This document shows, one piece after another, positions 12,841 through 63,030 of a stretch of 64,000 nt of DNA (positions are counted from its first letter, which is position 1; each line of letters starts with the position of its first letter). The stretch is from a virus (Duplodnaviria > Caudoviricetes): the IMG/VR virus record IMGVR_UViG_3300033412_000476, positions 1 through 64,000 of that record. One strand, 5' to 3'. The position numbers and the translations under genes were made by a program. The notes beneath the pieces were generated by a model. That model had not been told where the DNA came from. It worked only from the letters and a program-made list of their open reading frames with translations, and made no database searches.

Positions 12841-12846
12841 GGTTTC

Positions 12847-13424: not shown

Positions 13425-13425
13425 C

Positions 13426-13884: not shown

Positions 13885-13885
13885 G

Positions 13886-14548: not shown

Positions 14549-14600
14549 GGAACGCGAGGCTACCACGCGACCACGGGTTTGAGCTACCCTGGACGCGACG

Positions 14601-15616: not shown

Positions 15617-15619
15617 ACC

Positions 15620-15841: not shown

Positions 15842-15871
15842 TTTCGACGCTACGGCGCGGGAGATCGAGCG

Positions 15872-16636: not shown

Positions 16637-16641
16637 AGGTC

Positions 16642-17667: not shown

Positions 17668-17895
17668 CCACTGTGGGTAACACGTCACTTCGAAAAAGCG
17701 CAAAGCTCACAAAAATAGGGGGCGGAAAAGTTCGAGCACCCTCCCGGGCTCCGCCCGGGTTATGGTTTCTTCCGCAAACAACAAGCCGAACGGTCTCCGC
17801 AGGTGGAGCTGTCGGCGACGGCGGGCTGGGGCGGTGGCCCCGCGCTACCCCCTGCCCCCGTTCCTAACGTAGCGCCGTCCGAGCGAGCCAAGCGA

Positions 17896-18810: not shown

Positions 18811-18857
18811 TCAGCTGAACCGCAAACGCGGCTAGGCAAGCCGCGAGGAGATCGACG

Positions 18858-19778: not shown

Positions 19779-19808
19779 TCTAGTTCAGCTGAAGGGACTC
19801 GCAGCCAC

Positions 19809-20795: not shown

Positions 20796-20837
20796 TCGGA
20801 CCCGCTAACCGTCAGCTGAACTGCATCGGAGGCTTCT

Positions 20838-35170: not shown

Positions 35171-35224
35171 GGGGGTTTCCGCCCCGTTCGCCCATTTAGA
35201 CGGGGGCCCCCGGGGGCGTATTCA
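35171..35224 (-). promoter_or_regulatory. Leftward central promoter plus hairpin
   Basis: TGAATA-N16-CGTCTAA; GGGG-CGGAAAC-CCCC. Confidence 0.85.
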
Positions 35225-47607: not shown

Positions 47608-49017
47608 TCAGCTCCCGCTTTCGAAGCTGAGCATGTCGCCGGTCGGAGCTGCACCGATTCCCGTTGCGGCCCAACCTGCCTGATCGGGTGCCGTAGTGAA
47701 GACGGTAGTTGTGACGCGTGAGTCGAGCTGAATCCAGGTGTTGCCGTCGCGCGAGACTTCCGCGACGACGTTCGCGCCGGACCGCCGTACGCGCAACGCG
47801 ATCGGCGCGGTGCCATCGAGCGAAGCATAGCCCTTGGCGGTGAACACACTTCGTGCGGTCGAGCTGGTCCACACGGCGATCGCGAGAGACGTGAGGTTGT
47901 TGGCGCCGTCCTGCACCAGCTGCGCGAGATACACCTTGCCGGTGCCGCTCTCGCGCAGCAGCACCGACAGCACGCCCACACCCGCAGTCAGAGGCGTGGT
48001 GAATCGGAACGTCGCACGCGCGAACGCAGATGCAGCTGAGTTCGCGACAGTCATCCCGCGCAGCTGCCCGGGCGAAGCGCCATCGTTCGGGCCGGTGATG
48101 CGCGTCGCACCATTTTGATCGGCCGAGGTGGCGCCGCCTTGGTTGAACCACGTGAAGGTCGCGATCAGACCAGGCTCTTTACCGAGTAGCCCATTGATCA
48201 CAGGTCGCCACGCTGCGCCGTCATCGACCCACTCACCGACGGGCGCGTCAGTCAGGTAGGCGATCTTGCCGGCGTGCCCCGCGGCAGGCCGCGCGCCGTA
48301 CGTGCCGTAATAGGGCACAGTGCCATTGAGCGCGTCGAGCGCCGCTTTCACGGTGGCGCCCGTCACACCCGAATCGTTGGTCACTTGGCTCGCGGCGTAG
48401 TCACCGGCGGCAGCAACCACAGCGCCGGTACGCGTGAACACGCTGGTGACCGCAGCGCCAGGCGTGATCCCGTCGAGCTTGGCTTTGTCCGCGCCGCTCA
48501 GAAAGCCTGCAGCGCCCGAGGCTACGGCTACGGCATGTTGAGTGCCGCCTCCGCGCACGCCGTGCTGCACATCGGTCGCGAGCACACCGACTTGTACATC
48601 GTTAGCGTTGACGGTGATCGACCCGTCCGCGTTCGCGCCCACGTCGAACGTGCGATCAATGCTCAGATCTCCGCCACCCGTCAGACCCGCGCCGGCTGTG
48701 AGCGTGCGCCCGAGCGGCGGATAGAACGCCGCGTAGTCACCGGCCGCCGCGACCACCGCGCCGACGCGACCGAAGACCGAGACCACCGGTGCGGCAGGAA
48801 TCGAAGCGATCTCGGTTTGAAGAGTGTTGAGCGCGTCTTTGACGGTTGCGCCGACTACGGCTGAGTCGTTGGTGACGAGGCTTGCGGAGTAGTCACCGAG
48901 GACTGCAACGACGTTGCCGACGCGGCCAAAGACGCTGAGTACTGGCACCGCAGGAATGTCCGGCGCAGTCCAGATGGGGACTACCGAGCCGATCGCTGTG
49001 GGGTTTGCGCCCGACAC
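47608..49017 (-). CDS. Fibre/spike protein 1
   Basis: Three V.SVF.R.G.VVA..GDY repeats; C-terminal beta-sandwich head. Confidence 0.75.
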   Translation of the reverse strand: MSGANPTAIGSVVPIWTAPDIPAVPVLSVFGRVGNVVAVLGDYSASLVTNDSAVVGATVKDALNTLQTEIASIPAAPVVSVFGRVGAVVAAAGDYAAFYPPLGRTLTAGAGLTGGGDLSIDRTFDVGANADGSITVNANDVQVGVLATDVQHGVRGGGTQHAVAVASGAAGFLSGADKAKLDGITPGAAVTSVFTRTGAVVAAAGDYAASQVTNDSGVTGATVKAALDALNGTVPYYGTYGARPAAGHAGKIAYLTDAPVGEWVDDGAAWRPVINGLLGKEPGLIATFTWFNQGGATSADQNGATRITGPNDGASPGQLRGMTVANSAASAFARATFRFTTPLTAGVGVLSVLLRESGTGKVYLAQLVQDGANNLTSLAIAVWTSSTARSVFTAKGYASLDGTAPIALRVRRSGANVVAEVSRDGNTWIQLDSRVTTTVFTTAPDQAGWAATGIGAAPTGDMLSFESGS

Positions 49018-50040
49018 TTACGCGCGACCGACGCCAAAGCGCGCACGGCAGCGAGCCTGCATGTACGCGTCGTTTGCAGCGAAGTTGCCTACCGTCGTGT
49101 CGACGATCGCGATCATCAACATGTCGGTGCCGCTTGAGCCAGAAAAGCCGAAAGCCTGCAGCGTGCACGTGACCACTGTGTCATTGCCTGTGAAGTTGGG
49201 CGCGACGTCGACGCCGTCGATCTGGTACTTCGCGCCGGTCGACAGGGGCAGCATGCTGTGCACGTGATAGCCAAAATCGTTGGCGGGGGTCACGATGTTG
49301 ATCCCCTGTGTGCCCCCGGTGAAGTCGACTTGTGTGACGTAGTTGTCTGCGTTGTTCGCGCGACCGGCGACGAACACGTGTCCCGTGAGTCCCACGCCAG
49401 CCACGCACCCGATGCGAGCGTTTGCCACCGCAGCGAACGAGCGCGCACGCGCGACGACGTACCACGCGTAGCGATTGGCTGCGGGCACTGCGACAGCAGC
49501 GTTCATCACAGCCGCTGTCGTGGCCGGCGTGGCGAAGGGGTTGTCACCTGGACCGCCGAACGCGGTGTAAGTCGTGTTGCCCGCAGCCACCCCGAGATTT
49601 GCCCCTGCGACTCGGTCCCTGATCGCGGTGAAGTTGCCACCGGCCACGGTCACGTTCGGATTTCCCGTCAACGCAAGCTCGACCTCCCACCAGTACTTCA
49701 GCGCTGACCCCAGAAACGAGGTCATCGGGATCATGGGGTCGACTTTGTGAACGTGGTCGGCGCGCGCTGCGCTGGCTGACACGCCATCGGCCGCGATGTT
49801 GCCGACCGTAAGGAGAGCAGGCGAACCGAACGTCACCTGCCCGGCAAGCAGAGTGTTCAGCGCGTCTGCGACGGTTGCGCCAGCAACAGTGGAGTCGTTG
49901 GTGACGAGGCTTGCGGAGTAGTCACCGAGTACTGCGACAACCGCGCCCACGCGTCCGAAGACTGAGGTCACCGGCGCAGGCGGTATCGTCGGCGCAGTCC
50001 AGATGGGGACTACCGAGCCGATCGCTGTGGGGTTTGCGCC
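48863..50040. repeat. Direct repeats shared by the 5' ends of the two fibre genes
   Basis: 51 bp identical at 48961-49011 and 49990-50040; 38 bp identical at 48863-48900 and 49892-49929. Confidence 0.85.
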
Positions 50041-50046
50041 GGCCAT
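49018..50046 (-). CDS. Fibre/spike protein 2, LamG-like head
   Basis: Near-identical N-terminus to fibre 1; different head (..YQIDG..). Confidence 0.75.
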   Translation of the reverse strand: MAGANPTAIGSVVPIWTAPTIPPAPVTSVFGRVGAVVAVLGDYSASLVTNDSTVAGATVADALNTLLAGQVTFGSPALLTVGNIAADGVSASAARADHVHKVDPMIPMTSFLGSALKYWWEVELALTGNPNVTVAGGNFTAIRDRVAGANLGVAAGNTTYTAFGGPGDNPFATPATTAAVMNAAVAVPAANRYAWYVVARARSFAAVANARIGCVAGVGLTGHVFVAGRANNADNYVTQVDFTGGTQGINIVTPANDFGYHVHSMLPLSTGAKYQIDGVDVAPNFTGNDTVVTCTLQAFGFSGSSGTDMLMIAIVDTTVGNFAANDAYMQARCRARFGVGRA

Positions 50047-50049
50047 GAG

Positions 50050-50652
50050 TTACATCGATAGGGCGTAGTAGACCGACAGCGTGTTGCCTGCGTGTGCCGT
50101 CAGATCGAGCACGTTGAGTCGGAACGCTAGGGCGCCTGCGACGTCATAGGTCTGCGCGAAGCGCGCAGTACCAGCGGCGAGCACATCGGTGCGGAGCTCG
50201 GTCCCCTCGAGCGGCCGCGAACCAAAGCCGCCGGCAGCGAAGCGCGAGCCCACCGGCGCCAACGGCGTGACCGTGCCGCCGATGAGCGTCATGGCGTGCC
50301 AGACGCCGTCGCTACGCCGCACCTCGGGAATGACCGACAGCCGCCCGCCGACCGCCATCACATACTCGAGATAGATCTCGCAGAGCCGGTACTCCTGACA
50401 CTGCAGCTCGGGCAGCGCTTGGTACTCCGCGCCCTGCGCGCTCGAGATGATGACCTCGAGCTCGGAGACGAGCGGCACAGTCTGCGTCGTGAACGCCGGC
50501 TCTTTGACCCAGGGGGCGTCATCGTCACCGGGGGCGCCTTCGTTGCCGCCCGACTGCTGATTGGTGTAGCCGGCCGGATCAGCAGGCTTGCGATCGCGAA
50601 ACATCACGTCGAGGTCGTGGCGCGTGCTGTCGGTGTTCTTGCGGTTGTCCAT
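50050..50652 (-). CDS. beta-rich putative minor virion protein
   Basis: Strand-like pattern ending FRLNVLD...LSVYYAL. Confidence 0.6.
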   Translation of the reverse strand: MDNRKNTDSTRHDLDVMFRDRKPADPAGYTNQQSGGNEGAPGDDDAPWVKEPAFTTQTVPLVSELEVIISSAQGAEYQALPELQCQEYRLCEIYLEYVMAVGGRLSVIPEVRRSDGVWHAMTLIGGTVTPLAPVGSRFAAGGFGSRPLEGTELRTDVLAAGTARFAQTYDVAGALAFRLNVLDLTAHAGNTLSVYYALSM

Positions 50653-50925
50653 CTAGCGAAATCTCGTTTCCGGCACGCTCTGCTCGCGAGCCATGTTCGC
50701 CGCGCGGACCATCTTCGTGATGCCGCGAAACGCAAGTGCAACGCGCGGCGCCCGGGCTTCGAGGATCTTCCCGCCGGCAAGCAGCGCGAGCTTGCCGAAG
50801 ACCGCTACGCCGCTCTGCGCGACCTGCGCGCAAGTGGGGTGCGCGACGCCAAGCTGTTTTCGACCGGCGGTGAGCATGGTGCCCGCACCGATCGGGACGT
50901 CCCCGCGGCAGAGCACGCACTGCAC
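50653..50925 (-). CDS. small protein (CxxC...HxxC, then amphipathic helix)
   Basis: CVLC...HPTC. Confidence 0.55.
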   Translation of the reverse strand: MQCVLCRGDVPIGAGTMLTAGRKQLGVAHPTCAQVAQSGVAVFGKLALLAGGKILEARAPRVALAFRGITKMVRAANMAREQSVPETRFR

Positions 50926-50927
50926 GA

Positions 50928-51110
50928 TCAGAACTTCCCGGTCTTGACAGCCTGACGCGCCGCGTTCGACGCCGCGAAGGCTGCGCAGGGCGTACAGCCC
51001 TGCTTTTTGACGCGGCGCTGCCCCGGCTGCGGCTGCTGCGAGAGGTGAGCGCCCATGCCCACGAACGCCGCCTTACCGAGCGTCTTGAGGATTGCCAACT
51101 TTACGCTCAT
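50928..51110 (-). CDS. small protein with CxxC
   Basis: AGGAG RBS; MSVKLAILKTLGK...GCTPC. Confidence 0.55.
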   Translation of the reverse strand: MSVKLAILKTLGKAAFVGMGAHLSQQPQPGQRRVKKQGCTPCAAFAASNAARQAVKTGKF

Positions 51111-51123
51111 GACCGGACTCCTT

Positions 51124-51522
51124 TCAGCGGGTGCGGCGCTTGATGCGATCGCGCACGGCCCACAGCATACCGCCAAGGCCGCCGACGACGAGCACCGCGC
51201 CTAGGCCCTTTTGGGTGTACCACGTCGCCATACCCGTGCTGACACTCGTCAGGCCGGCAGCGAACGCGGCACCCTTGATGGCGCCCTCACGGTGATCGCT
51301 GGCCACCCAGCCCAGCAGCGCGCCACCCAGGCCCGCGCCTGCGAGCGTCGCAGCCGCGTAGAGCGGAGAATCGACCGCCGTAGCCGCGCCAAGCCGGCTG
51401 CCGCCACGCACGCCGTGGAAGGGGATGCCGGTCGCGTCGGCGGGCATCAGCAGCGTCTGCATGGTGCCAAGGCCGCCAAGACCCGCACCGGGTGCACCAT
51501 CGAAGTTTCCGGCGGGCAGCAT
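51124..51522 (-). CDS. Three-TM putative virion membrane protein
   Basis: GAGGAG RBS; LGGLG and RLGA motifs; basic tail. Confidence 0.65.
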   Translation of the reverse strand: MLPAGNFDGAPGAGLGGLGTMQTLLMPADATGIPFHGVRGGSRLGAATAVDSPLYAAATLAGAGLGGALLGWVASDHREGAIKGAAFAAGLTSVSTGMATWYTQKGLGAVLVVGGLGGMLWAVRDRIKRRTR

Positions 51523-51524: not shown

Positions 51525-51860
51525 TCAGCTCTCCTCGTCGAAGTACTCGATCACTACGCCGAGCTCGACCATGCCGCCGGTGCCGGGCACCGTCAGCGCG
51601 TTGATCGTCTGGTGCGCCTGCAGATAGATCGGCATGACGATGTCAGTCGGCAGGTTCACGAACAAGAACGCGCGACCGGGCCCGGCTTCGTCGGGCGTGG
51701 GCCGATCGATCGAGAACGCGCAGCGCGGTCCGGGCGGCACGAGCAGCCGCACGCGGCGGATCGCACCGGGCGGCGCCTGTAGCTCAGCCGAGACGATCTC
51801 CCGCGCCTGCAGGTCGACTGTGGCGCGGTAGCTCTCGGTCGGTTTTCGCAGATGCCGCAT
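51525..51860 (-). CDS. Small beta-sandwich protein, penton-like candidate
   Basis: 111 aa, strand-rich, directly after the DJR-like genes. Confidence 0.45.
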   Translation of the reverse strand: MRHLRKPTESYRATVDLQAREIVSAELQAPPGAIRRVRLLVPPGPRCAFSIDRPTPDEAGPGRAFLFVNLPTDIVMPIYLQAHQTINALTVPGTGGMVELGVVIEYFDEES

Positions 51861-51868
51861 GAAGCTCC

Positions 51869-52831
51869 CTACGAGACCATGATGTAGCCGGCCATGCCGA
51901 TGCACAGCACGTCCGGCAGCTCATCGACCAAGGCGCGGACGTCGACGGTGACGCCCTCGCCGGGGTTCCAGATCATCCCGTCACCGGGGAACTGGTGGAC
52001 GACCGCGCGGCCGGTCGAGAGCCCGAGCAGCGTCGCTTGCGGGTAAGGCGCGTTGATGTTCTGCGGGCCGACGAACCAGTCGGCCTGCGTGCCGTTGCCG
52101 ACCTGCCGGATCTTGATCCGGATGCGACCGATCGCGCCGGTCGGATCGGACTGGTCGATGGCCGCACCGACCGTGACCGTCATATCGGTGATGAGAATCG
52201 GCTCGCTGCCACTGTTGGTGAAGTCGGGCGAGGTGAAATCGAGCGGCTGCGTGGTCTCGAGCTGCACCGAGCCCGTCAGGATGTACGGCCGGTGCGAGAG
52301 CGCGCCGATGCCGTGGAACGCGACAGCGACCGGCACCGCGTCCGAAGGATCCGAAGCGTCCTGCAGCTGAACGCGAATCTGAAACGTGTCGCGCACGGCG
52401 AGCACGAGCGGCTGACCGCAAGCCACGAAGTCCCAGTGCGCGTTGCCCGCGGAGAACGCCTCGGGGGCAGCGACGACCTTGTTGCCCCAGAGCGTGAGCG
52501 GGAGCGGCTCGCGGTTCATGTAAAACTGATTGTGGAACTGAAACCGCACGCCGATGCGGCCGACGTCGAGCGGGTTGGCCACCGACGGCTGCGCGTCGGT
52601 CGTCAGATAGCGCACGGCCGCCACGATGTGCGTGAGCCGGATGGGAAACTGCTCGCCGTTGTAGAACACCTCGGGTTGGCCCGAGGTGATGATGTTCCGA
52701 TCCGAGTTGAGGGTGATCTCGTCGAAGAACAGCCGCGGCTCGTTGATGATGCCCTTGCTGAGCAACGTCTTTCCGAGCTGGATGACGTAGTCGAGGTATT
52801 CGGAGGTTCCCTTGGGCGGCAGTTGCGGCAT
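51869..52831 (-). CDS. Double jelly-roll-like capsid protein candidate A
   Basis: Internal duplication: FYNGEQFPIRLTHI...VAFHGI and FTNSGSEPILITDM...IGMAGY. Confidence 0.55.
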   Translation of the reverse strand: MPQLPPKGTSEYLDYVIQLGKTLLSKGIINEPRLFFDEITLNSDRNIITSGQPEVFYNGEQFPIRLTHIVAAVRYLTTDAQPSVANPLDVGRIGVRFQFHNQFYMNREPLPLTLWGNKVVAAPEAFSAGNAHWDFVACGQPLVLAVRDTFQIRVQLQDASDPSDAVPVAVAFHGIGALSHRPYILTGSVQLETTQPLDFTSPDFTNSGSEPILITDMTVTVGAAIDQSDPTGAIGRIRIKIRQVGNGTQADWFVGPQNINAPYPQATLLGLSTGRAVVHQFPGDGMIWNPGEGVTVDVRALVDELPDVLCIGMAGYIMVS

Positions 52832-52837
52832 GGTGAC

Positions 52838-53971
52838 TTAGCCCTCGATCGTTGCAAAGCCGTTGAACGAAACGCCGATGTGATAGACCGGCGTCTCATC
52901 GGTCGGCACGGCGTCCATTTCGAGCTCGACGCTCAGCTGACCATCCGGCGGGAGCGTGATCGGTTCCGGCAGATCCATCACGAGCGCGGGCGTGATGGCG
53001 TCGAACACCAGCGCGAGCGGCGCACCGGGCCGCCACCAGTAGGTTTGCGAGCCGGTGCCGATCGTGCGAATGCGCGTGCCGGTGCGGAGCGCGAGCGGTG
53101 ACGGCCTTGCGCTCGCGCCAAACTGGGCGACGAGCCGCTGATCGTAAAGCCGCTGATCGATCGCAACGCGCAGGTCCGTGATCATCGAGCTGCCGTCGCG
53201 CGCGTCGTTCTGCCCAATGAAGCTGTTAGGGTTGCTGCTGCTACCGCTCGGAAAGCGCGAGAGTGGCGGCCACCAGCTGTCCGAGGTCGGAATGACGACC
53301 GGCGTACCGACACCGTAGCCGTCCGGCGGGTAGGGCCAACGCTCTTCCGGATTGAACTCGGTGATGTTTCCGGTGAACGGAAACAGATTTCGCAGGCACT
53401 GCCGCGCCGATCCGGGCCACAGACCGCCCTGCTGCTGATAGAGCATCCACGCGGTCGCGAGCGCGTCTTCAGCAACGCCGCTCACCCCTACGCCGGGGAA
53501 CGGCGTGTGCGCGGACAAGTCCCACTCGAGCGAGCCTTGCTTGGGCACGATGAGCGGGTTGTCGAGCCGCAGCATCGACTGACCCCACATCGAGCTCGGC
53601 AAGTACGTCGCCACCTCGCCCGCATCGCCCGCGATCAGATCGTTGGGCGGCTGCGCGGTCGGTTTTGGCGCCATCGACGCGCAGTCGATGAACTTGCGAT
53701 CGTTCCAGTGAAACTGCTGCGGCGAGCTGATCTTCAGCCGCGCGCGATTGAGTACTGCGGAGGTCTCGTTGTAGCCGACGCCAGAAACGTCGGTCGGCGT
53801 CCCCTGCAGCAAGTAGTTGACCGCGCAGAGCGCGATGCGCTTGAGCGTGATCGGGTGGCGCTCGCCGTTGTAGAAGTGCCGGCGCGGGAGCTCGAGCTGC
53901 ACAGGCGCCGCGTGTGCGTCCACGTTCGCGATGGACCAAAGCGAGCGCGGCTCGTAGTAAAGGCCGGCCAT
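52838..53971 (-). CDS. Double jelly-roll-like capsid protein candidate B (paralogue of A)
   Basis: FYNGERHPITLKRI, ITDLRV.ID, RIRTIGTGSQTYWW, VSFNGF align to A. Confidence 0.55.
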   Translation of the reverse strand: MAGLYYEPRSLWSIANVDAHAAPVQLELPRRHFYNGERHPITLKRIALCAVNYLLQGTPTDVSGVGYNETSAVLNRARLKISSPQQFHWNDRKFIDCASMAPKPTAQPPNDLIAGDAGEVATYLPSSMWGQSMLRLDNPLIVPKQGSLEWDLSAHTPFPGVGVSGVAEDALATAWMLYQQQGGLWPGSARQCLRNLFPFTGNITEFNPEERWPYPPDGYGVGTPVVIPTSDSWWPPLSRFPSGSSSNPNSFIGQNDARDGSSMITDLRVAIDQRLYDQRLVAQFGASARPSPLALRTGTRIRTIGTGSQTYWWRPGAPLALVFDAITPALVMDLPEPITLPPDGQLSVELEMDAVPTDETPVYHIGVSFNGFATIEG

Positions 53972-54108
53972 TAGAGGATCTCCGCGGGGCCGATGACGAC
54001 CTGCGTCGTGTACGTCGGCTGTCTCGGCCGCTTCAGCCACAAGATCCACACCGAGCCGGCGATGAAGCCGACCAGCGCGAAACCGAGCTGCTGCGTTTGC
54101 TTGCGCAT
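53971..54108 (-). CDS. 45-aa single-TM protein
   Basis: MRKQTQQLGFALVGFIAGSVWILWLKRPR...; coupled at both ends. Confidence 0.55.
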   Translation of the reverse strand: MRKQTQQLGFALVGFIAGSVWILWLKRPRQPTYTTQVVIGPAEIL

Positions 54109-54443
54109 CAGGCCGTCACATCCAACTGCAAGCCCTTCTTGCCTGCGTCGACGATGATCGCGTCGATCTCCTCGCCGTTCAGGAAGTGCCCGTGGTACGC
54201 CTCGAGCACACCGCCGCTGCGATCGGCGACGAATGCGCCGACGAAGTCGATGCCGCCCATCTGCGCTGCGGCGTAGGCCATGGCGCTCTTCTTGGTGAAG
54301 AACCAGCGCGAGGGCGTGCGCGCGTAGCCGTCGCTGGTCGTGGTCACGTTGTAGACCTGGAAGCTGTGGCTGGCGAACCACGCGCCGACTGCAGCCGCAA
54401 CAGCTACGGCGCCGGCCACGAGCACTTTCGGATTCGCCTTCAT
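54108..54443 (-). CDS. N-terminal TM protein
   Basis: GGAGG RBS; VLVAGAVAVAAAVGAWF. Confidence 0.6.
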   Translation of the reverse strand: MKANPKVLVAGAVAVAAAVGAWFASHSFQVYNVTTTSDGYARTPSRWFFTKKSAMAYAAAQMGGIDFVGAFVADRSGGVLEAYHGHFLNGEEIDAIIVDAGKKGLQLDVTA

Positions 54444-54466
54444 CTCACCCGACCTCCAGAAAGGCC

Positions 54467-54507
54467 AACGCCCCTGCGATACCCTGGGAGGATACCGTAG
54501 GGGCGTC
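54467..54507 (-). terminator. Long stem-loop after the three capsid paralogues
   Basis: ACGCCCCT/AGGGGCGT outer stem extended by a wobble-containing inner stem; no U-tract. Confidence 0.4.
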
Positions 54508-54535
54508 CGCCCACCAAGGACCCAACGCTCGCGCG

Positions 54536-55255
54536 CTACGCGACCGGACGGCGCTTCAGACCGTCGAGGTAGATGCGCATGCGCCAGTCCTGATCGACCA
54601 GGAGAGCACCCGCGGGCGTGCGGAAGCGAACCTTGATCGTCCGATCGCTCGAGATGAGGATCGGCATGTTGAGCAGGCGCTGGTTCTTCTTCGGCCCGAG
54701 CTCGCCGCCCGTGCCGTAGTTCAGGTTCAGCGACGTCGCGCCGCCGTTGGCGATGGTCAGCGCGTCACCGCTGCCCGTCGCGTAGGCGCCCACGCCCTGC
54801 CCGACGTACGCCAGCGGAGACTGGAACATCGGCTTGCTGATGTTGCTGCCGACCATCAGCTCGAGCAGCGCTTGCTGCTTCATCAGCGCGTGGTTGGTGC
54901 CGCTGAAGATCGGTGCCACCGCTTCGTCGTCGTTGGGCGGGTTGGTGTACACCGAGTCTTGGTTGTTGCTGCCTTCGATCGCGAACAGCTCGTAAGTCAC
55001 GCTGAAGACGATCGCCGCTTCGTCGTGGTTGAGCTTGCTCTTGACCACCTGGTTGGTGTCGGCCTGCGTCGCCATGCGTCGCCCGGTCGAGATCTGACCG
55101 GCCTGCGGCACCTGGCCGCCGACGACGTATGAGAACGCGTACAGGTCGACCTGTGCGCCAGCTGCGCCTTCGATGGTCGAGAACAGCGGCCAGTGCAGCC
55201 ACTCCTCGATCCGGAAGACCGAGCCGTCGGGCATCTTGAAGGTATCGATCGCCAT
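54536..55255 (-). CDS. Single jelly-roll major capsid protein candidate 3
   Basis: MPDG...EW..PLFST, DTN....L..., P.....V.F, RIYLDG.KRRP; AAGGAG RBS. Confidence 0.6.
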   Translation of the reverse strand: MAIDTFKMPDGSVFRIEEWLHWPLFSTIEGAAGAQVDLYAFSYVVGGQVPQAGQISTGRRMATQADTNQVVKSKLNHDEAAIVFSVTYELFAIEGSNNQDSVYTNPPNDDEAVAPIFSGTNHALMKQQALLELMVGSNISKPMFQSPLAYVGQGVGAYATGSGDALTIANGGATSLNLNYGTGGELGPKKNQRLLNMPILISSDRTIKVRFRTPAGALLVDQDWRMRIYLDGLKRRPVA

Positions 55256-55280
55256 GACCTGCTCCTTGTGCCTTTCGGCC

Positions 55281-55979
55281 TCACGCCACCGGACGGCGGC
55301 GTTCTCCATCGAGGTAGGTGCGCAGGCGAATGCGCGAGTTGGTGGCCAAGTTCAGGTTCGTCACCTGACCCGGGCCCGGAAGGAAGACGATGCCGAAGGC
55401 TTCGCCGCCCGCGATCTGCAGCGGCGAGGCGAGCTCGCGCGTTGCTTCCGTCGCGGGGTAGCCGTTGTTCGCGGGCACCTCGCCGTTGCCACCCGCGCCG
55501 CTCACCTGCGAGCGACCACCGCTGATCGTGTAGAAGATGCCCGTACCCGACGGCCAGTACGACAGCGGCGAGTTGGTGTACTGCTTGACGCCCGCGATGA
55601 CGAACTGCATCACGAGGTCACGCTGGATGCGGAGCATGTCCGGCAGCGGCACGCCCGGGGGATCGCAGTCGGGGAACCGGTCGACGCTCGCCGCCGGCCC
55701 GATCTTGGTCACCTCCACGCCGATGGCGCGGATGGTGATCTGCTCGTTCTCGGGCAGCTTGCCGCCCTCGCCCTGCAGATTGGTGTCGATGATGGTCGAC
55801 TGCCGCGGTCCCACGCTGCCGGGGACCACGCCGCCTTGACCGTACGAGAACGCGATGATGCCGCTGTTGAAGCTGCCCGCCGCGATCTCGACCGTGCTGT
55901 AGAGCGGCACGGCCATCGTCCACTCCCCGGGAATGACCACATTCCCGTTGGGGAGCCGAACCTTGTCGATTTGTGCCAT
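55281..55979 (-). CDS. Single jelly-roll major capsid protein candidate 2
   Basis: LPNG...EW...PLYSTVEI, DTNLQGEGGKLPENEQITIRAIGV, RTYLDG.RRRP. Confidence 0.62.
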   Translation of the reverse strand: MAQIDKVRLPNGNVVIPGEWTMAVPLYSTVEIAAGSFNSGIIAFSYGQGGVVPGSVGPRQSTIIDTNLQGEGGKLPENEQITIRAIGVEVTKIGPAASVDRFPDCDPPGVPLPDMLRIQRDLVMQFVIAGVKQYTNSPLSYWPSGTGIFYTISGGRSQVSGAGGNGEVPANNGYPATEATRELASPLQIAGGEAFGIVFLPGPGQVTNLNLATNSRIRLRTYLDGERRRPVA

Positions 55980-56009
55980 GGGATTGCTCCTGTGCCCTTC
56001 GCCTTCGGT

Positions 56010-56756
56010 TCAGCTCGTGGGCCGCTTGTAGAGGCCGTCGAGGTAGACGCGAACGCGTGCGAAGCGCGCGTCGTCGATGCCGCCCTCCTCGCCGCCTTCG
56101 ATGCCCAGCTCACCGAGCTCGATGCCCTGCCCGGTGCCGTCGTCGGAGTAGTTCAGCAGCAAGCGGAACTTCTCCTGACCACCGATGTGCTGCGGGACCA
56201 CGTTGGTCCGCACGGCCTGTTGCGACGGCAGGCCCGCGAAACCGTAGTTCGCGATCGTGCCCTCTGCGCTCGGTGCGAGCATGCCCGCGCCGAAGTTGTA
56301 GTAGCCGAAGCCCGCCATCGCGTACTTCTTCTGGCTGATCTCGAGCGTCATCAGCAGACGTAGCGCCATGACGCTGAGCATCAGCGGCGTCGGCGCAGGT
56401 TCACCGTTGCTGAGCGCCGCAGGCGCGCTGAAGTCCGGCGCGTCCTCGTCCGTGACGTGCCGACGGAACACCTCGGGGCGGATGGCGTAGACCATCAGCT
56501 CTTCGGTGTCGGCCATGGCGCCGGGGTTGGCCATGTTGGTGTCGAGCTCCGTCGCCGTCCGCTGGTTGGCGATGGCCACCGGCGCAAACGCCGGAACCGG
56601 ATCGCCCGCGGTGTACTGGAACAGCGACATCTCCTGAGTGTTGGTGCCGCTCAGGATCTCGACGGTCGAGAACTGCGGACGATCAGTCCAGTCGACGAAC
56701 GCGATCACGCGCCCGTCGGCCAGCTTGATCTCCACGATCTGCGAGTTGTCACCCAT
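56010..56756 (-). CDS. Single jelly-roll major capsid protein candidate 1
   Basis: LADG...DW..PQFSTVEI, DTNM..PG.M...EL.VYAI, RVYLDG..KRP. Confidence 0.62.
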   Translation of the reverse strand: MGDNSQIVEIKLADGRVIAFVDWTDRPQFSTVEILSGTNTQEMSLFQYTAGDPVPAFAPVAIANQRTATELDTNMANPGAMADTEELMVYAIRPEVFRRHVTDEDAPDFSAPAALSNGEPAPTPLMLSVMALRLLMTLEISQKKYAMAGFGYYNFGAGMLAPSAEGTIANYGFAGLPSQQAVRTNVVPQHIGGQEKFRLLLNYSDDGTGQGIELGELGIEGGEEGGIDDARFARVRVYLDGLYKRPTS

Positions 56757-56784: not shown

Positions 56785-57354
56785 TCAGCGCATCCGGAAC
56801 GTCGGGGTACCGAACGCGCCCGGAATGACCGCGCTCAGGCCGCTGAGGTTGACGGACTCACCGCCGCCCGGGCCGTAGCTGCCAGCGGCTGCCGGCTGCA
56901 TCACGACTGCGCCCATACCTCGGCGCGCGCCGTTCATCTGCTGCGCGACGATGGCGCCCATGCCGCGAATGCCGCTGGTGCCAGCAGGCATCATCGACAT
57001 GCCGCTCATCATCGCGGGCAGCTTGGTCGCTGCGAACGCGATCGCGGAACCGGCCGCGGCTGCGATGCCGGCGGGCTTGCTCGTGGTGACCCACAAGATC
57101 CCGCTGACCAGCAGACCGAGAACGAGTCCGACTGCGTCGGCGTTGTTGACGACCGGCGCGTTCTCCGCGGTCGGTGCAACGAGTTGCTTGACCCCGACCG
57201 CACCGAGAATCGTCGTGGCGCCGCCGAGTGCCGCAGGTCCGAAAGCACCGAGAGTGCTCGACGGATTGCTGAGCCGCTCGGCGCCGCTCAGGCGCTTGAC
57301 GGTGATGATCGAACCAAGGCGGCGACGCCGCCGTCCGTGCCTTCTCCGTGCCAT
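56785..57354 (-). CDS. Virion membrane protein with Arg-rich N-terminus
   Basis: MARRRHGRRRRRLGS; three hydrophobic segments; IRGMGA, RRGMGA, LSGLS motifs. Confidence 0.68.
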   Translation of the reverse strand: MARRRHGRRRRRLGSIITVKRLSGAERLSNPSSTLGAFGPAALGGATTILGAVGVKQLVAPTAENAPVVNNADAVGLVLGLLVSGILWVTTSKPAGIAAAAGSAIAFAATKLPAMMSGMSMMPAGTSGIRGMGAIVAQQMNGARRGMGAVVMQPAAAGSYGPGGGESVNLSGLSAVIPGAFGTPTFRMR

Positions 57355-57435
57355 CGTCACATCTCCTATACGCAGCCCGCTCCGGTTTTTTCCGGACAAA
57401 CTACGTTCGTGCGTTTCTTTTCCGGCGGCGTTGCC

Positions 57436-57708
57436 TTACGCGCCCTTGACCCTGCGAACGCGGATGCGTGCGCGACAGCCCTTGCGAAGCACGGCCGCCG
57501 CATGCTTGGCCGCGCGCTTGTTGGTGTGACACGTCTGCTTGGCAGCCGACTTGCCCTTGCCCTTGAACACGCACCAGCGGTGCTTGCGCCGACCACGGCT
57601 GCCGGCGCGGCCGGGCTTGGTGTAAGACGCGCACACGCGCATCTTCTTGGCCGGTCCGTACTTCTGTAGGACCGTGATCGTCTTCTTGCGTTTGCACCTG
57701 CGAGCCAT
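57436..57708 (-). CDS. Cys/Lys/Arg-rich core protein candidate
   Basis: GGAGG RBS; MARRCKRKK...KHRWCVFK...CRARIRVRR. Confidence 0.65.
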   Translation of the reverse strand: MARRCKRKKTITVLQKYGPAKKMRVCASYTKPGRAGSRGRRKHRWCVFKGKGKSAAKQTCHTNKRAAKHAAAVLRKGCRARIRVRRVKGA

Positions 57709-58133
57709 CAGCGCCTCCGTCGTCCTTTGCGGCGGTGGGTCCAGACCCAAGCGCCGATTGCCGTCGCAGCCAGTCCCACACCCACGGCCCAACCAAAGCC
57801 GCGAAGTTGAACGAGCTCGCCCGCGTGTTGGCGGTCCTTGCTCGTCCGATTGAGCACGTCATGCAGCTTCGCGTTCAGCGTGTCGGCTCGCTGGCGCCAC
57901 GCACTGAGCGACGGCGCGTCACCAGGCAGCGTGATCGTGTCGCTCTTCAAGAGCGAGATCTGCTGCGCGAGTGAGTCGAGCTCGTTTTTGTAGCCGACGA
58001 CGTCGACGCCCTGGTCGAGCAGAATCGACAGATTCTGCACGGCCTGGATGTGCAAATCCTCGAGCCCCGCGACCGTTTCGTTGAGATCAGTCTGCGCGGT
58101 TGCGTCGAGAACGCCGATGGCGTGAGAAAGCAT
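57708..58133 (-). CDS. Tail-anchored helical-bundle protein
   Basis: LRGFG, then TM, then HRRKGRRRR. Confidence 0.65.
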   Translation of the reverse strand: MLSHAIGVLDATAQTDLNETVAGLEDLHIQAVQNLSILLDQGVDVVGYKNELDSLAQQISLLKSDTITLPGDAPSLSAWRQRADTLNAKLHDVLNRTSKDRQHAGELVQLRGFGWAVGVGLAATAIGAWVWTHRRKGRRRR

Positions 58134-58138
58134 CGCTG

Positions 58139-58942
58139 CTACCTGCGCCTTCGCTTGCCGCGGTTGATCCACCAGACGATCGTACCGCCGAGCCCGACGA
58201 CGCCGAGCCCGACCGCGAGCAGCGGTACACGACTGGCGACGCGGGTACCGACGACGTGGATGTCCTCGCCGGTGAAATCTGTTTGCGTCTCGAGCGGCGC
58301 GAGCTCTTGATCGGTCAGGTGCTGAATCGGCGTGCTGGGGTCCGGCGCGTTGAGCACATCCGCCACCGGCGCAGCGATGCCGCCTGGCACCGTCGACATG
58401 GTCGTCGAGATCACCTGCGGCGGCCCTACAGGCGTTCCGGTCGGCGTGTTGACCGGCACGGTGTTGCGGATGACCGAGCCGCTGCTGTTGATGACAGCCT
58501 GCGCGTCGGCCGCGTCCGAGCCGTCGCCTGGAATGGGCAGCGGCTCGTTCAGGACGCTCGTCACCGGCGCAGCGCTCGGCGGAGTCAGCGCATCGATGCC
58601 GTCCTTGTTCTGCGCGGCCCACACGGGCATCGCGCTCGCCTTGCTTGGCGGCACGGAGATGCCGGCGGCGCCACAGATGATCGTGCACAGCGCGGACGAA
58701 GTGTTGGGTCCGTACTTGCCGTCTTCCACCAGCTTGACCCAGCGCCGGCTGCTGCCGAGCTTCTTGAGCAAGCTGCTGATGATCGGCCCGTTCGCGTTCC
58801 ATGCCTGCTGGTACGCGAGGACATCGGGGCTCGCCGCGCTGCTGCCAGTCACGGCGAGCGCCCGAATCATGCGCTGAGCAAAGCCCCGCATCTGAACGAC
58901 CATGTCGTTCTCGTGCGGAGCGATTTGTACCGCGGCGGCCAT
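58139..58942 (-). CDS. Tail-anchored protein with PG_binding_1-like N-terminal domain
   Basis: VLAYQQAWN...LVEDGKYGPNTSSAL; Pro-rich linker; TM plus RGKRRRR. Confidence 0.65.
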   Translation of the reverse strand: MAAAVQIAPHENDMVVQMRGFAQRMIRALAVTGSSAASPDVLAYQQAWNANGPIISSLLKKLGSSRRWVKLVEDGKYGPNTSSALCTIICGAAGISVPPSKASAMPVWAAQNKDGIDALTPPSAAPVTSVLNEPLPIPGDGSDAADAQAVINSSGSVIRNTVPVNTPTGTPVGPPQVISTTMSTVPGGIAAPVADVLNAPDPSTPIQHLTDQELAPLETQTDFTGEDIHVVGTRVASRVPLLAVGLGVVGLGGTIVWWINRGKRRRR

Positions 58943-58981
58943 GGAGTGACTCCTTGTCGGAGTCAGCGCGTCAGGCGCTGA

Positions 58982-59134
58982 CTACCGCTTGGCACGCTTG
59001 AGGCACTTGTTACGACGACCACGCTTCAGGCACGCCGTCTTGCGACGACCACCGCCGCTGCGCTTGCCGCGGCGCTTGCCACCACCCGACCCGCACTTGC
59101 GGAAACGACCCTTGGCAGTTCTGCATCGACGCAT
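58982..59134 (-). CDS. 50-aa protamine-like protein (absent from ORF track)
   Basis: GAGGAG RBS; MRRCRTAKGRFRKCGSGGGKRRGKRSGGGRRKTACLKRGRRNKCLKRAKR*. Confidence 0.65.
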   Translation of the reverse strand: MRRCRTAKGRFRKCGSGGGKRRGKRSGGGRRKTACLKRGRRNKCLKRAKR

Positions 59135-59137
59135 GAT

Positions 59138-59287
59138 TCAGCTCCTCTTTCGGCGACAAACGAACTTGCGGCAAACCCGTTTGCCGCGGACTCTGCGGTA
59201 CCCGCCCTTGCAGATGGCGCGGGAGCCTCGCGGACAGCGCCTGCAGCGCTTCGCATGCTTACTCGTCCCGCAGAGACCACTCGCCAT
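59138..59287 (-). CDS. 49-aa Cys/Arg-rich protein
   Basis: MASGLCGTSKHAKRCRRCPRGSRAICKGGYRRVRGKRVCRKFVCRRKRS. Confidence 0.62.
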   Translation of the reverse strand: MASGLCGTSKHAKRCRRCPRGSRAICKGGYRRVRGKRVCRKFVCRRKRS

Positions 59288-59301
59288 CTCGCACCTTCCC
59301 T

Positions 59302-59913
59302 TCAACGCTTTCGACAGACGAACTTTTTGCAGACCTTGCGGCCCTTGATCTTGCGATAGCCGCCGGTGCACACCGCGCGACCGCCGTTCTTGCACTTGCG
59401 CTTGCAGACGACCTTGCGGTTGCCCGCGCTTCGAGCGCCCGCGCGCGTGTTCGAAGTGAGCACGCCGTGCTTGTCCCAGCAGAGCTTGCGCCGAACGGTC
59501 TTGCCGCTCTTGAGCGTCATCTTGACGTTCTTGCAGCGCGCAGTGCGGCCGGGCTTGCGCGAGACGCCTTTGCGACGCGGCTTCTCTTCGACGGTATCGG
59601 AGAAGAGCTCGAGCTGCGCGCCTTCACGCACGCCCGCGCCCATCAAACGCGCGGCGCCAGCATCGCGAGCGCGAACGACGCTCCACTTGACGACGTCGTA
59701 GCGATCGAGACCGAGATCGTTTGCGAGCACACGCGCCGCGCGCTCGGGGCGTTCGCCTGGACCAAGCTCCGCGGCGTGCTTGTCGCCGTAGCGATCCTGC
59801 ACGACAACGAAACGGCTCTTCGCGGCGGCTTCACCGAAGCCGTAGCCGGCGGGCGCGGCCGGTAGACCACGGAAGCCGTACGGAACGAACCCATATGCGG
59901 GCTGTAGTGCCAT
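59302..59913 (-). CDS. Protein with C-terminal Cys/Lys/Arg modules
   Basis: C-terminus VCTGGYRKIKGRKVCKKFVCRKR is paralogous to 59138-59287. Confidence 0.65.
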   Translation of the reverse strand: MALQPAYGFVPYGFRGLPAAPAGYGFGEAAAKSRFVVVQDRYGDKHAAELGPGERPERAARVLANDLGLDRYDVVKWSVVRARDAGAARLMGAGVREGAQLELFSDTVEEKPRRKGVSRKPGRTARCKNVKMTLKSGKTVRRKLCWDKHGVLTSNTRAGARSAGNRKVVCKRKCKNGGRAVCTGGYRKIKGRKVCKKFVCRKR

Positions 59914-59973
59914 CGTCGTTGGGAGCGGCACTGCAGTTGACTTTTGCCGAGTCAACTACAGTGCGATTGGAGT

Positions 59974-60660
59974 CTAGCGGTGTCGTCGCCGTTTCGTCAA
60001 CTTCAACATGCCTCGCTTGCGCGCGTAGGTGAGACCTACCGCGAAGAAGAACCCGATGCCGACGAGGCCACCGAGCTGCCGCAGGTAGCCTGAATCCGGA
60101 ACAGATTCGGGCGTGTCTGCGACGGAATCACCCGACGGCACCGTGACCGTTGGCGTCGGTCCACCGTACGGCGGCACGGTTGGCGTGGACGGCGTGGAAT
60201 ATGGCGGCGTGCTTTGCTGCGGAGGCGTCGTCGGCGTACTCGGCGTCGACGGCGTCTGTCTTGGTGCAGGGCACTGTTGTTCCACATAGCCCGCCCACTG
60301 TGCTGCGCCAGCAGCCGCGGTGGTCTTGCCCGCAGCGATGTTCTGGCAGATCTGATCGAAAACGTGTTTGTGCGCCGGGCTGTTGATGCAGGTCTTGACG
60401 TATGCCGGCGCCTGCGCGAGCAGCGAGCTCCACATCGAGTTGCAAGCGTTGGTCACTTCTGCGGTCGGTGACGTCGACGTCGTCGGTGCTGTCGTCTTCG
60501 GTGGAGTTGTCGTCTTGGGCGGCGTGATGACCTGTACATCACCTTGCGTCGGCGCGTAGTAGCCGCGGCTCCGCTGAAGCTCCGTCAGCGCAGGCTGCCG
60601 AATGTTCGTTGCAACCGCGGTGGCTGGCGTCGACGCGCCCAAGCGAACAACGACGTGCAT
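59974..60660 (-). CDS. Tail-anchored protein with Cys-helical domain and Pro/Thr linkers
   Basis: C...W......QIC...G...W.GY.E domain; TM plus KRRRHR. Confidence 0.65.
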   Translation of the reverse strand: MHVVVRLGASTPATAVATNIRQPALTELQRSRGYYAPTQGDVQVITPPKTTTPPKTTAPTTSTSPTAEVTNACNSMWSSLLAQAPAYVKTCINSPAHKHVFDQICQNIAAGKTTAAAGAAQWAGYVEQQCPAPRQTPSTPSTPTTPPQQSTPPYSTPSTPTVPPYGGPTPTVTVPSGDSVADTPESVPDSGYLRQLGGLVGIGFFFAVGLTYARKRGMLKLTKRRRHR

Positions 60661-60669
60661 GGCTGGCTC

Positions 60670-62598
60670 CTACCGTAGCGGATTGCTCGACCGAATAAAA
60701 CCCTGCTTGAAGAGCGTGAACAGACTCGGTCGCGGGTTCTTGCCGTACTTGTTCTCGAGATAGCCCTTCCATGCGTTGCTCGCTTGGATGAGCGACCAGC
60801 TACCGCTGGCGAGCTGACTGCAGATCTGCGTGTGCATCTGCTTGTCCGCGGCCGTCACGACGTAGCGATACGGTGAGTTGGTGACGAACTTCTGCCAGTC
60901 TTCCTCGCACGGCAGCGAGCCGTGCTGCGTGACGGCCGGTGTTGGGGGCGGCAGATCAGGAACATCCGCGGCACACGCTGGCCGCGGTTGACCCTCACAG
61001 ATCTCACAGGCATTGCCGGCGCGCGTCCACCAGACCGCGCAAGCCGCACGCGCCGTGCGGACAACACTCGTAACCGTCGCCGTGAAAAGGCCAGGGAGGA
61101 GATCTCGATAGCGCGTGATGGCGACGCCGAGACGATAATAAAGGTCAGCCGTTGCCCCGTCGGCGAGCAGCCGGTAGCCGGCGCCGGTGAAAGTTCGGCT
61201 GAAGGGGTCACGTACGACGAAGAACGGTTCGTAGCCTCCACCGACCGCGCCTCCGATGAGCGAAACGAGTTTGTCCGCAATCCGCTGCATCGAGTTTTGG
61301 AATGGAGCGAGCGGTGAGCTCGCCACGGCCTGCTGCACTTTGGCGCCGAACTCGACGCTCTTCAGACACTGCGCGTCACTCGGATCGCACGTGAGCGCCG
61401 GATTGGCGAGCGCGATACGTGTGCGGGCGGTGACGTTGGTCAATAGGCCCTTGAAGTAGTCCGCGTAGTCCGTGCGCGTAACCGGCTGGCGTGCGATCGC
61501 GCCGTCGCTTCGCTTGGCGAAGCTGCCGTCTGCAGCAAGGCGCGGCGAGCTCTGCGCCAGCCACATGTTCAGATGCGTCTGCAGAACCACGTCGTAGCTC
61601 GCACCAAGAATCGTCCGCACGTGGTCTGCAACCGCATCGAGGCCGAACGCGAGGTTCGGATACGCCTGAGTGCCGTAGAAGGTGATCTTCGGCGCCGTCG
61701 CTTCGCCACGCGCGTGCGCTAGGTACGTCGAGAGCGAAACGACGCTGTTGGCCTTACCCATGCCGAGTGGCCAGTAGCTCGGGTCGCTGCCGCTGTAGCC
61801 CCAGTCTTGCACTGACCACAGCCGCCACTGCATGCACGCACGCAGCAGCGCCGGATCGCTAGCGTAGCGCTTGAGATCGGCGCGGTCCTTGTCGCCGTGG
61901 CTGGCAATCCAGTGCGCGGCCCACGTCGACGACCACGGCTGCATTGCCGCAAGCAAGAGCGGCCAGATGGGGCTCGGATGCTGATACAGTGGCGAACGCG
62001 CGCCAGGCGCCGCAGCCCACTGCACCACGAGCTCAGAGAATGGCGAGGGGCAGAGGCGTGAGTTGACTGCAGCATCGCGAATCGCGGTCGTGGCTGCGGT
62101 CTTTGCGAAATCTGCTTTCGCGACCGCCCACGCGGCGACCTCACTTGCGGCCGCTCCGATCGACTTGGGCCCGGTGCCGAAGATCACCGGCAGAAGCGCA
62201 AGCTCGGGCACGCCTGCGATGCCGCCCGAGTAGATGTCACTCCACGGAAATGGGAAGGCAAAGAGCGCGTAGTTGACGTGTGCCCAGCAGTCGAGCGCCC
62301 AGACGACCTTGAACTCCGACGATGACGTCGAGCTCGGGCGCATCGCGAGCGCGGCACGCAGGTAGTTTTGCACCCACGTGAAGTAGTCACGCGGGAAGAC
62401 GAGCTGCGCACTCTGCGCATTCGGATCACCGCCAAACTCGAGCCACGCGGCAGGACAGCGGTAAGTGTAGATCGCGTCGCCGCTCATGTTGCCGGCGTTG
62501 CACTGCCGCACGGCATAGCTCGGTCCGCTCACGACAGGCTGCGAAGCTCGCAGCGCCTCGAGCTTGTTGAAATACGTCAGTGTGTCGGCTTGCGCCAC
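60670..62598 (-). CDS. Large putative virion protein (642 aa)
   Basis: Long ORF in the structural operon; C-terminal domain shared with 59974-60660. Confidence 0.65.
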   Translation of the reverse strand: MAQADTLTYFNKLEALRASQPVVSGPSYAVRQCNAGNMSGDAIYTYRCPAAWLEFGGDPNAQSAQLVFPRDYFTWVQNYLRAALAMRPSSTSSSEFKVVWALDCWAHVNYALFAFPFPWSDIYSGGIAGVPELALLPVIFGTGPKSIGAAASEVAAWAVAKADFAKTAATTAIRDAAVNSRLCPSPFSELVVQWAAAPGARSPLYQHPSPIWPLLLAAMQPWSSTWAAHWIASHGDKDRADLKRYASDPALLRACMQWRLWSVQDWGYSGSDPSYWPLGMGKANSVVSLSTYLAHARGEATAPKITFYGTQAYPNLAFGLDAVADHVRTILGASYDVVLQTHLNMWLAQSSPRLAADGSFAKRSDGAIARQPVTRTDYADYFKGLLTNVTARTRIALANPALTCDPSDAQCLKSVEFGAKVQQAVASSPLAPFQNSMQRIADKLVSLIGGAVGGGYEPFFVVRDPFSRTFTGAGYRLLADGATADLYYRLGVAITRYRDLLPGLFTATVTSVVRTARAACAVWWTRAGNACEICEGQPRPACAADVPDLPPPTPAVTQHGSLPCEEDWQKFVTNSPYRYVVTAADKQMHTQICSQLASGSWSLIQASNAWKGYLENKYGKNPRPSLFTLFKQGFIRSSNPLR

Positions 62599-62607
62599 AG
62601 CGGCGCC

Positions 62608-63030
62608 TTACCGGCGACGCGGCTTGGCGTAGCCCTGCACGGCCGCGACGCCGAGCGTGATGAGCGGCATGAAGATGCCGGCGAGGCCATAGCCGACGGT
62701 CGCCAGCGTCTTGCCGCCCGAGCGCTTGTAGCCGTGGTAGCCGCCGACGAAGGCGCCGAGGATGTGCGCGGTCGTCATCGCGATCGAGCTCTGCACGCTC
62801 GGAACCGCGAGCGGCATGCCGAACGTTTCTTGGCTCCACTGGTTGGCGCGAGACATACGCGCCGCGACCTGATCGACCGGCCCGCCGTTGTCGACCGAAC
62901 CGTTGCTGCCGTTGACCGCCGCCGTCGTCATGATCTGCGCAGGCGGCTGAGGCACCGAGTTGTTCGGCAAGGGGTCGAACGCCGGCACCGAGGGGTCCTG
63001 CAGCGCAGCGATCGTCGTGGAATCTGCCAT
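62608..63030 (-). CDS. Membrane protein, YHGY.R family paralogue 1
   Basis: GAGGAG RBS; GGYHGYKRS...G..G.F.P......QGYAKPRRR. Confidence 0.68.
   Translation of the reverse strand: MADSTTIAALQDPSVPAFDPLPNNSVPQPPAQIMTTAAVNGSNGSVDNGGPVDQVAARMSRANQWSQETFGMPLAVPSVQSSIAMTTAHILGAFVGGYHGYKRSGGKTLATVGYGLAGIFMPLITLGVAAVQGYAKPRRR

Follow-up and report, generated by a model that had tools for sequence, protein, structure and literature searches.

We analyzed a minus-strand gene cassette at positions 51,525 to 56,756 of a 64,000-nucleotide stretch (the window), which is the first part of the IMG/VR virus record IMGVR_UViG_3300033412_000476, a single contig of 87,267 bp. The cassette contains three paralogous genes, sjrA, sjrB, and sjrC, predicted to code for single-jelly-roll proteins, followed by two larger paralogues, d377 and d320, and by the small gene p111. 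We put a probability of roughly 0.6 on this being a core shell operon, from an uncultured family of bacterial double-stranded DNA (dsDNA) viruses without tails, probably with an internal membrane and with genomes of ~70 to 89 kb, in which the sjr trio provides the major capsid proteins. A preliminary description of the window, made from the sequence alone, had proposed a tailless virus larger than 64 kb that combines three single-jelly-roll capsomers with double-jelly-roll-like proteins; the length of the record confirms the size.

The products of sjrA, sjrB, and sjrC are 24 to 29% identical and have 40 invariant alignment columns, among them the motifs LPDG..W..P..ST, DTN, and R.YLDG..RRP, which bears out the earlier listing of three paralogues of 232 to 248 amino acids (aa) with common motifs. 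A profile of the trio retrieved 212 representative clusters among 1.84 billion proteins. The best 150 of the 212 all have at most 269 aa, the full-length ones mostly 210 to 269 aa, and were sorted into orthogroups A, B, and C, with 62, 30, and 36 clusters, respectively, and 22 ambiguous ones. A Pfam scan of all 117 members of the trio family yielded no covering family. The G+C content at third codon positions (GC3) of the three genes is the highest of the genome, at 0.89 to 0.90 (0.90 for sjrA). For sjrC, the start was set at the 19th codon of the open reading frame (ORF), in agreement with the 239-aa orthologue of the related locus L003; the longest ORF reaches 55309.

An AlphaFold2 model of the sjrB product, computed from a 117-sequence alignment, reached a predicted local distance difference test score (pLDDT) of 92.8 and a predicted template modeling score (pTM) of 0.89. 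Foldseek searches of the PDB with this model returned SPV1 (6oj0) as the top match, with a probability of 1.00. A second structural search ranked SPV1 first (7.9), followed by the P23-77 VP16-VP17 complex (6.9), SH1 (6.8), HHIV-2 (6.6), HCIV-1 (6.4), and P23-77 VP17 (6.2); the seventh match was PHM, a cellular jelly roll (5.8). In BFVD, the best match was I1ZBH9, a viral protein of 211 aa, the same length as SSIP-1 gp46 and ORF35, with which it may be identical. The modeling thus supports jelly-roll folds for the three small paralogues, with the capsid proteins of SPV1 and Halopanivirales as their nearest solved relatives, and the single-jelly-roll assignment of the preliminary description held. 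The complex predicted for sjrA, sjrB, and sjrC together, each entered as an alignment, had a score of 0.28 (mark, 0.32) and says nothing either way.

We compared the cassette with 11 related loci, found in two NCBI assemblies, a Gemmatimonadota chromosome from a metagenome-assembled genome (MAG), six IMG/VR records, and contigs from JGI and Logan. The order basic membrane protein, sjrA, sjrB, sjrC, d377, d320, p111 is the same in 11/11 loci, each of which has one member of every trio orthogroup and a d377 orthologue. Within the module, conservation peaks in the trio, with identities to the closest relative of 78% for sjrA, 86% for sjrB, and 85% for sjrC. The values are 73% for d377, 64% for d320, 58% for p111, and ~57 to 60% for the other proteins of the module.

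A GC-rich hairpin separates the trio from the other cassette genes (Table 1). The 106-nucleotide segment that contains it has a minimum free energy of -55.5 kcal/mol (z, -2.98), and none of 200 shuffled sequences was as stable. A hairpin with an ACGCCCC...GGGGCGU base is found at the same place in nine of the 10 related loci examined (L003, L004, L011 to L015, L018, and L019), two of which are identical there. The base of the stem is conserved and its upper part variable, and a run of T follows in several relatives. From its sequence, we read the hairpin as a putative intrinsic terminator or attenuator dividing the trio from d377, d320, and p111. A scan of the 45- to 64-kb region for consensus promoters and terminators found sites no more common than in shuffled sequences and missed this hairpin with its weak U tract. 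The palindrome pattern has only two matches in the window; the second, a CGCCCC...GGGGCG palindrome at 35180 to 35218, lies between divergently oriented genes. Because of the conserved hairpin and the conservation gradient, the larger pair is probably minor in the shell rather than a second major capsomer.

The d377 and d320 products align as homologues along their entire length (hhalign probability, 98.8%; E-value, 6e-17; 285 columns), as had been proposed for these two proteins of 320 to 377 aa, and d377 has an insertion of ~60 aa between its two domains. The d320 family comprises 78 homologue clusters. The N- and C-terminal halves of d320 gave a colinear match of 61 columns (P, 0.004), a F.NGE.PI.LT motif occurs twice, at about residues 55 and 203, and the model (pLDDT, 94.2; pTM, 0.91) has 7 + 7 strands. 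These features lend weak support to the internal two-domain duplication that had also been claimed.

In VIA searches, the d320 model matched an HHIV-2 protein (7.8), a faustovirus capsid protein (7.6 to 7.9), orf virus D13 and PRD1 P3 (7.5), and STIV A223 (7.3). Double-jelly-roll capsid proteins, including those of PRD1 (P3), PBCV-1, and faustovirus, as well as PHM and birnavirus VP2, align in both VIA searches with one d320 barrel, over 105 to 125 residues, and the alignments usually fall on the second barrel of the target. The top Foldseek matches are birnavirus VP2, with longer alignments and TM scores of only ~0.2. A whole-chain double-jelly-roll match was rejected for d320, as no alignment spans both barrels. 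Of the double-jelly-roll-like character claimed for the larger pair, these searches thus support single barrels in d320, which is predicted to hold jelly-roll-like barrels of the capsid kind; the matches do not establish a double jelly roll of the canonical form. The Protein Atlas model of p111 is of low confidence (pLDDT, 0.58); its neighbors are beta sandwiches, of the galactose-binding-like type of TPPII and of Cu2_monoox_C. None of the six cassette proteins matched Pfam, PHROGs, or PDB sequences.

A bolder reading would unite in one motorless shell three-paralogue capsomers of the SPV1/Halopanivirales type and double-barrel proteins with double-jelly-roll-like barrels, which would make the element a mosaic of, or a bridge between, these lineages, with the largest genome known for its capsid type. 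We consider it unlikely. The trio profile has no significant similarity to the d320 and d377 profiles (best E-value, 0.0026, over 47 C-terminal columns), and no longer, fused proteins of the trio type were found, which is weak evidence; the best 150 of the 212 representatives all have at most 269 aa. An evolutionary link between the trio and the larger pair thus gained no backing from these searches, and the relevance to a transition from single to double jelly rolls that the preliminary description had suggested is speculative.

The roles might also be reversed, with d377 and d320 as the major, double-jelly-roll-like capsomers, arranged as pseudo-hexameric trimers or hetero-oligomers, and the trio as penton, cement, or under-capsomer proteins. 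The capsid-like barrels of d320 notwithstanding, this arrangement is improbable: the structural matches stop at one barrel, the trio is better conserved than the larger pair and lies upstream of the conserved terminator-like hairpin, and its best matches are hexamer-forming major capsid proteins.

The genes expected of a tailed phage were searched for over the whole 87,267-bp record. Six-frame searches with hidden Markov models (HMMs) found no Terminase_6N, TerL_ATPase, or Terminase_3, and no Phage_capsid (HK97), Phage_portal, or SPP1_portal, of which strongly diverged versions may escape such searches. There was no match to Pox_A32 or FtsK_SpoIIIE, so that no packaging ATPase of the FtsK/A32 type is recognizable. 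None of the ORFs tested matched a head, tail, or packaging family among 38,880 PHROGs. The full record thus bears out what had been stated for the window, where no HK97, portal, terminase, or tail genes were recognized; the FtsK/HerA packaging ATPase anticipated in the rest of the genome was not found by the Pox_A32 and FtsK searches. Classical Walker A motifs are limited to RecD-like, UvrD-like, and SNF2 helicases and a Sak4-like protein, and none occurs in the unassigned ORFs. Nor was there a match to Terminase_6N, Terminase_6C, or Phage_capsid in five related IMG/VR records, of which two (80.6 and 69.5 kb) are rated 100% complete.

The record has a G+C content of 61 to 68% and gave no match in blastn and tblastn searches against a phage collection. 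The cassette belongs to a minus-strand block at ~45.8 to 64.3 kb whose ORFs all lack Pfam matches above the gathering cutoff and matches to head or packaging families of PHROGs; the sole named match there is a weak one to a tape-measure protein (E-value, 0.026). A 200-bp direct repeat is present at both ends of the record (genome positions 1 to 200 and 87068 to 87267, one mismatch). Its proteins have homologues on contigs of 80 to 89 kb, and the 80.6-kb relative has terminal repeats. Because of the terminal repeat and the sizes of the relatives, we treated the record as apparently essentially complete. The replication side resembles that of phages, with a uracil-DNA-glycosylase-PolA fusion, helicases, a topoisomerase-like protein, ParB, and a sigma-factor-like protein. 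The fusion (window positions 5140 to 8109, plus strand) is 989 aa long and joins a uracil-DNA-glycosylase-superfamily domain to a family A DNA polymerase.

Relatives occur in Gemmatimonadota assemblies, and relatives encode integrases. The trio family was found in two of 401 sampled Gemmatimonadota genomes, a weak hint at Gemmatimonadota as the host. In the MAG chromosome (CP070815.1, 4.74 Mb; loci L004/L007, 1158203 to 1194261), the cassette lies in an island of ~10.6 kb that carries no replication genes and is flanked by cellular genes: on one side those for a metallo-beta-lactamase, an M23 peptidase, and MacB, and on the other those for methyltransferases and an ABC ATPase. The cassette is therefore able to exist apart from the 87-kb backbone. 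No direct repeats resembling attachment sites were found around the island, which may be a decayed provirus. A block with terminase-like (Terminase_6C; E-value, 7e-8) and portal-like genes lies ~15 kb away on the same strand. Within the 140 kb around this copy, only the six cassette genes have counterparts in the proteome of the 87-kb record; therefore, the terminase block is not part of the 87-kb virus, and we took it to be a separate prophage.

These data bear on the possibility that the element is a tailed phage, or has another known morphotype, with capsid, portal, and terminase too diverged to be recognized, its jelly rolls being fiber, decoration, or cement proteins. Jelly-roll cement, tail-fiber, and baseplate proteins are indeed among the weaker structural matches (KHP40 cement, Pam1 7eel_H, an Agrobacterium phage 7-7-1 fiber, and a KP1 baseplate protein), the replication genes match tailed-phage families of PHROGs, several large proteins lack an assignment, and the terminase- and portal-like genes lie close to the cassette in one MAG. 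This interpretation is nevertheless quite improbable, as all eight hallmark HMMs remained without a match in the record, with the same outcome for the terminase and capsid models in the two relatives rated complete, there is neither a PHROG match for head, tail, or packaging nor a Walker A motif in the unassigned ORFs, and the MAG block falls outside the six genes held in common. A non-virion jelly-roll assembly on a plasmid-like element, such as a transfer-agent-like particle, a surface array of lectins, or a domesticated capsid-like compartment, would fit the cassette-only chromosomal copy with its cellular flanks, the ParB gene, and the integrases of relatives, but is very improbable given the 80- to 89-kb IMG/VR viral records with terminal repeats, the setting of the cassette among fiber-like, membrane, and DNA-binding-type proteins, best structural matches that are capsid proteins, and an island that may be provirus debris.

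Table 1. Features of the cassette and the surrounding module (window positions; gene starts are those that agree with relatives).
Feature	Positions	Strand	Description
Upstream module part	57436-63030	minus	Syntenic in L003
204-aa basic membrane protein	56785-57399	minus	pI 12.0, ~3 hydrophobic segments; conserved directly upstream of sjrA
sjrA, 248 aa	56010-56756	minus	Single-jelly-roll-like paralogue, orthogroup A; candidate major capsid protein
sjrB, 232 aa	55281-55979	minus	Single-jelly-roll-like paralogue, orthogroup B; candidate major capsid protein; modeled
sjrC, 239 aa	54536-55255	minus	Single-jelly-roll-like paralogue, orthogroup C; candidate major capsid protein
GC-rich terminator-like hairpin	54462-54512	minus	Directly 3' of the sjrC stop codon; weak U tract follows
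111-aa protein	54108-54443	minus	N-terminal hydrophobic (membrane) helix; between sjrC and d377; limited to close relatives; absent from the preliminary description
d377, 377 aa	52838-53971	minus	Two-beta-domain paralogue of d320; candidate minor/vertex protein; longest ORF to 54049
d320, 320 aa	51869-52831	minus	N-terminal helix, then two beta-sandwich (jelly-roll-like) domains
p111, 111 aa	51525-51860	minus	Small conserved beta protein; candidate penton/vertex base; longest ORF to 51905
Downstream module part	47608-51522	minus	Basic/membrane proteins of 132, 82, and 90 aa; conserved 200-aa protein; two fiber-like proteins

The upstream part of the module codes for two very basic, Cys-rich proteins, one of 118 aa (isoelectric point [pI] 11.8; 36 lysines plus arginines) and one of 217 aa (pI 10.8; 51 lysines plus arginines), and for proteins of 267, 228, and 140 aa in which a C-terminal hydrophobic segment is followed by an Arg-rich tail. 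A 642-aa protein of this part had no detectable relatives in family libraries and no usable match in the Protein Atlas. In the downstream part, the two fiber-like proteins, of 342 and 469 aa, are encoded by adjacent genes (47608 to 50046, minus strand). They have in common an N-terminus of 66 aa that is 86% identical and a V.SVF.R.G.VVA..GDY motif, of which the 469-aa protein contains three repeats, and they differ in their C-terminal parts. By sequence, the pair resembles interchangeable receptor-binding proteins on a common anchor, and both are candidate spikes or receptor binders.

Other genes of note lie outside this block. Four tandem paralogues of 306 to 335 aa (window positions 17803 to 21788, plus strand) are 30 to 38% identical and have GC3 values of 0.84 to 0.90; the two that were checked against PHROGs gave no match, and Pfam yielded nothing beyond a weak Laminin_G_3 hint in one paralogue (E-value, 0.056). 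They may be virion or host-interaction proteins with a lectin fold. A second cluster of small predicted membrane proteins (window positions 12265 to 16839) may function as a lysis cassette or supply further virion membrane proteins. One of its products, of 246 aa, has a hydrophobic segment at the C-terminus and a Lys/Arg tail, like those of the capsid module, and another, of 256 aa, has no family match. At genome positions 82659 to 84353 (7659 to 9353 of L002, plus strand), a 564-aa protein, among the largest unassigned ones, has a coiled coil, a single hydrophobic segment, and an acidic C-terminal region. It had no Pfam match and one weak match to a PHROG of unknown function (E-value, 0.0096).

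If the cassette is a shell operon, sjrA, sjrB, and sjrC would be major capsid proteins that have held distinct, non-redundant roles since an ancient triplication. Together they may build pseudo-hexameric capsomers comparable to the hexagonal ones that SPV1 and Halopanivirales assemble as homo- and hetero-oligomers. The d377, d320, and p111 proteins would be made in smaller amounts and occupy special sites, most plausibly a five-fold vertex complex with a penton base and a turret or spike base, to which the fiber-like pair would attach. The small membrane proteins with Arg-rich tails and the basic Cys-rich proteins may form the internal membrane and condense the DNA. As no packaging ATPase is recognizable, the genome might become enclosed as the particle assembles instead of being pumped in, as proposed for SPV1. 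The scheme starts from what was observed, namely paralogy and synteny of the genes, the folds, the hairpin, and the lack of hallmark genes; its stoichiometry, vertex role, membrane, and mode of packaging are inferred.

Several results weigh against this reading. The profiles of both the trio family and the d320 family found no match among PDB sequences. The SSIP-1 proteins showed no significant similarity to the three family profiles in hmmsearch and hhalign comparisons, and tblastn against the phage collection detected none either. The GC3 of d320, at 0.90, equals that of the trio, and therefore d320 may be abundant too; the placement of d377, d320, and p111 at the vertex is an inference. The island in the MAG, with the terminase- and portal-like block nearby, may mean that the cassette depends on other elements there. 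As for the record itself, IMG/VR gives its topology as linear, and CheckV rates its completeness at 66%.

If the reading is true, a widespread family of ~70 to 89 kb would greatly extend the size range of the single-jelly-roll architecture, whose described dsDNA viruses measure 20 kb for SPV1, up to ~31 kb for Halopanivirales, and 43.8 kb for SSIP-1. It would also be a test case for the enclosure of large genomes without a terminase or an FtsK-type motor, and it would add a three-paralogue stage to the proposed series of capsid gene duplications from one to two. Because no structural protein matches Pfam or PHROGs, such genomes would probably slip past virus classification by hallmark genes.

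Among known viruses, SPV1 (Portogloboviridae) comes closest in fold, the 87-kb element having a VP4-like single jelly roll (VP4; PDB 6OJ0), with no detectable sequence similarity between SPV1 and the trio. SPV1 has one hexamer-forming capsid protein and a penton protein, whereas the element has three ancient paralogues. The SPV1 genome is circular, 20 kb long, and without a polymerase or other replication genes, in contrast to the PolA and helicases of the element, with their bacterial-phage affinities, and its host is a hyperthermophilic archaeon (Sulfolobales), whereas relatives of the element are found in Gemmatimonadota assemblies. Portogloboviridae have no packaging ATPase and condense their DNA with a nucleocapsid protein inside a lipid layer; in the element, no ATPase was found, and basic Cys-rich and membrane proteins are encoded. 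In having no recognizable packaging ATPase, the element resembles SPV1 and FLiP (PMC8812541).

The trio also matches the fold type of P23-77 VP16/VP17 and SH1 VP4/VP7 in Halopanivirales (Singelaviria; P23-77, IN93, SH1, HHIV-2, HCIV-1, and SNJ1). These viruses have two capsid proteins, compared with the three orthogroups present in 11/11 related loci, and genomes of ~16 to 31 kb, compared with 87,267 bp here. A packaging ATPase of the FtsK/HerA type is conserved in Halopanivirales (PMC8812541), unlike in the 87-kb record, where no such gene was found. SSIP-1, the largest described membrane-containing tailless phage reported with two capsid protein types (PMC6356626), has a run of structural genes, gp44 to gp47, for proteins of 210 to 256 aa, in a genome of 43.8 kb, half the size of the 87-kb record.

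The multi-jelly-roll vertex and capsid proteins of Varidnaviria (STIV A223, PRD1 P3, and PBCV-1 Vp54) align with d320 one barrel at a time; their side-by-side double-barrel geometry was not recovered for d320, and there is no sequence similarity. Capsid lineages with single and with double barrels are now placed in separate realms and have been argued to have separate origins. The double-jelly-roll viruses of prokaryotes are mostly smaller than 20 kb (PMC8812541). Caudoviricetes are defined here by an HK97-fold capsid protein, a portal, and a large terminase, none of which was matched in the 87-kb record. We found no described bacterial virus of ~87 kb with a single-jelly-roll capsid in the literature. 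The capsid fold and the tailless design are known, and what is new is a much larger, undescribed bacterial lineage with three capsid paralogues and no recognizable motor. Most likely, its shell is made of three related single-jelly-roll proteins, and all other known viruses of that design are two to five times smaller.

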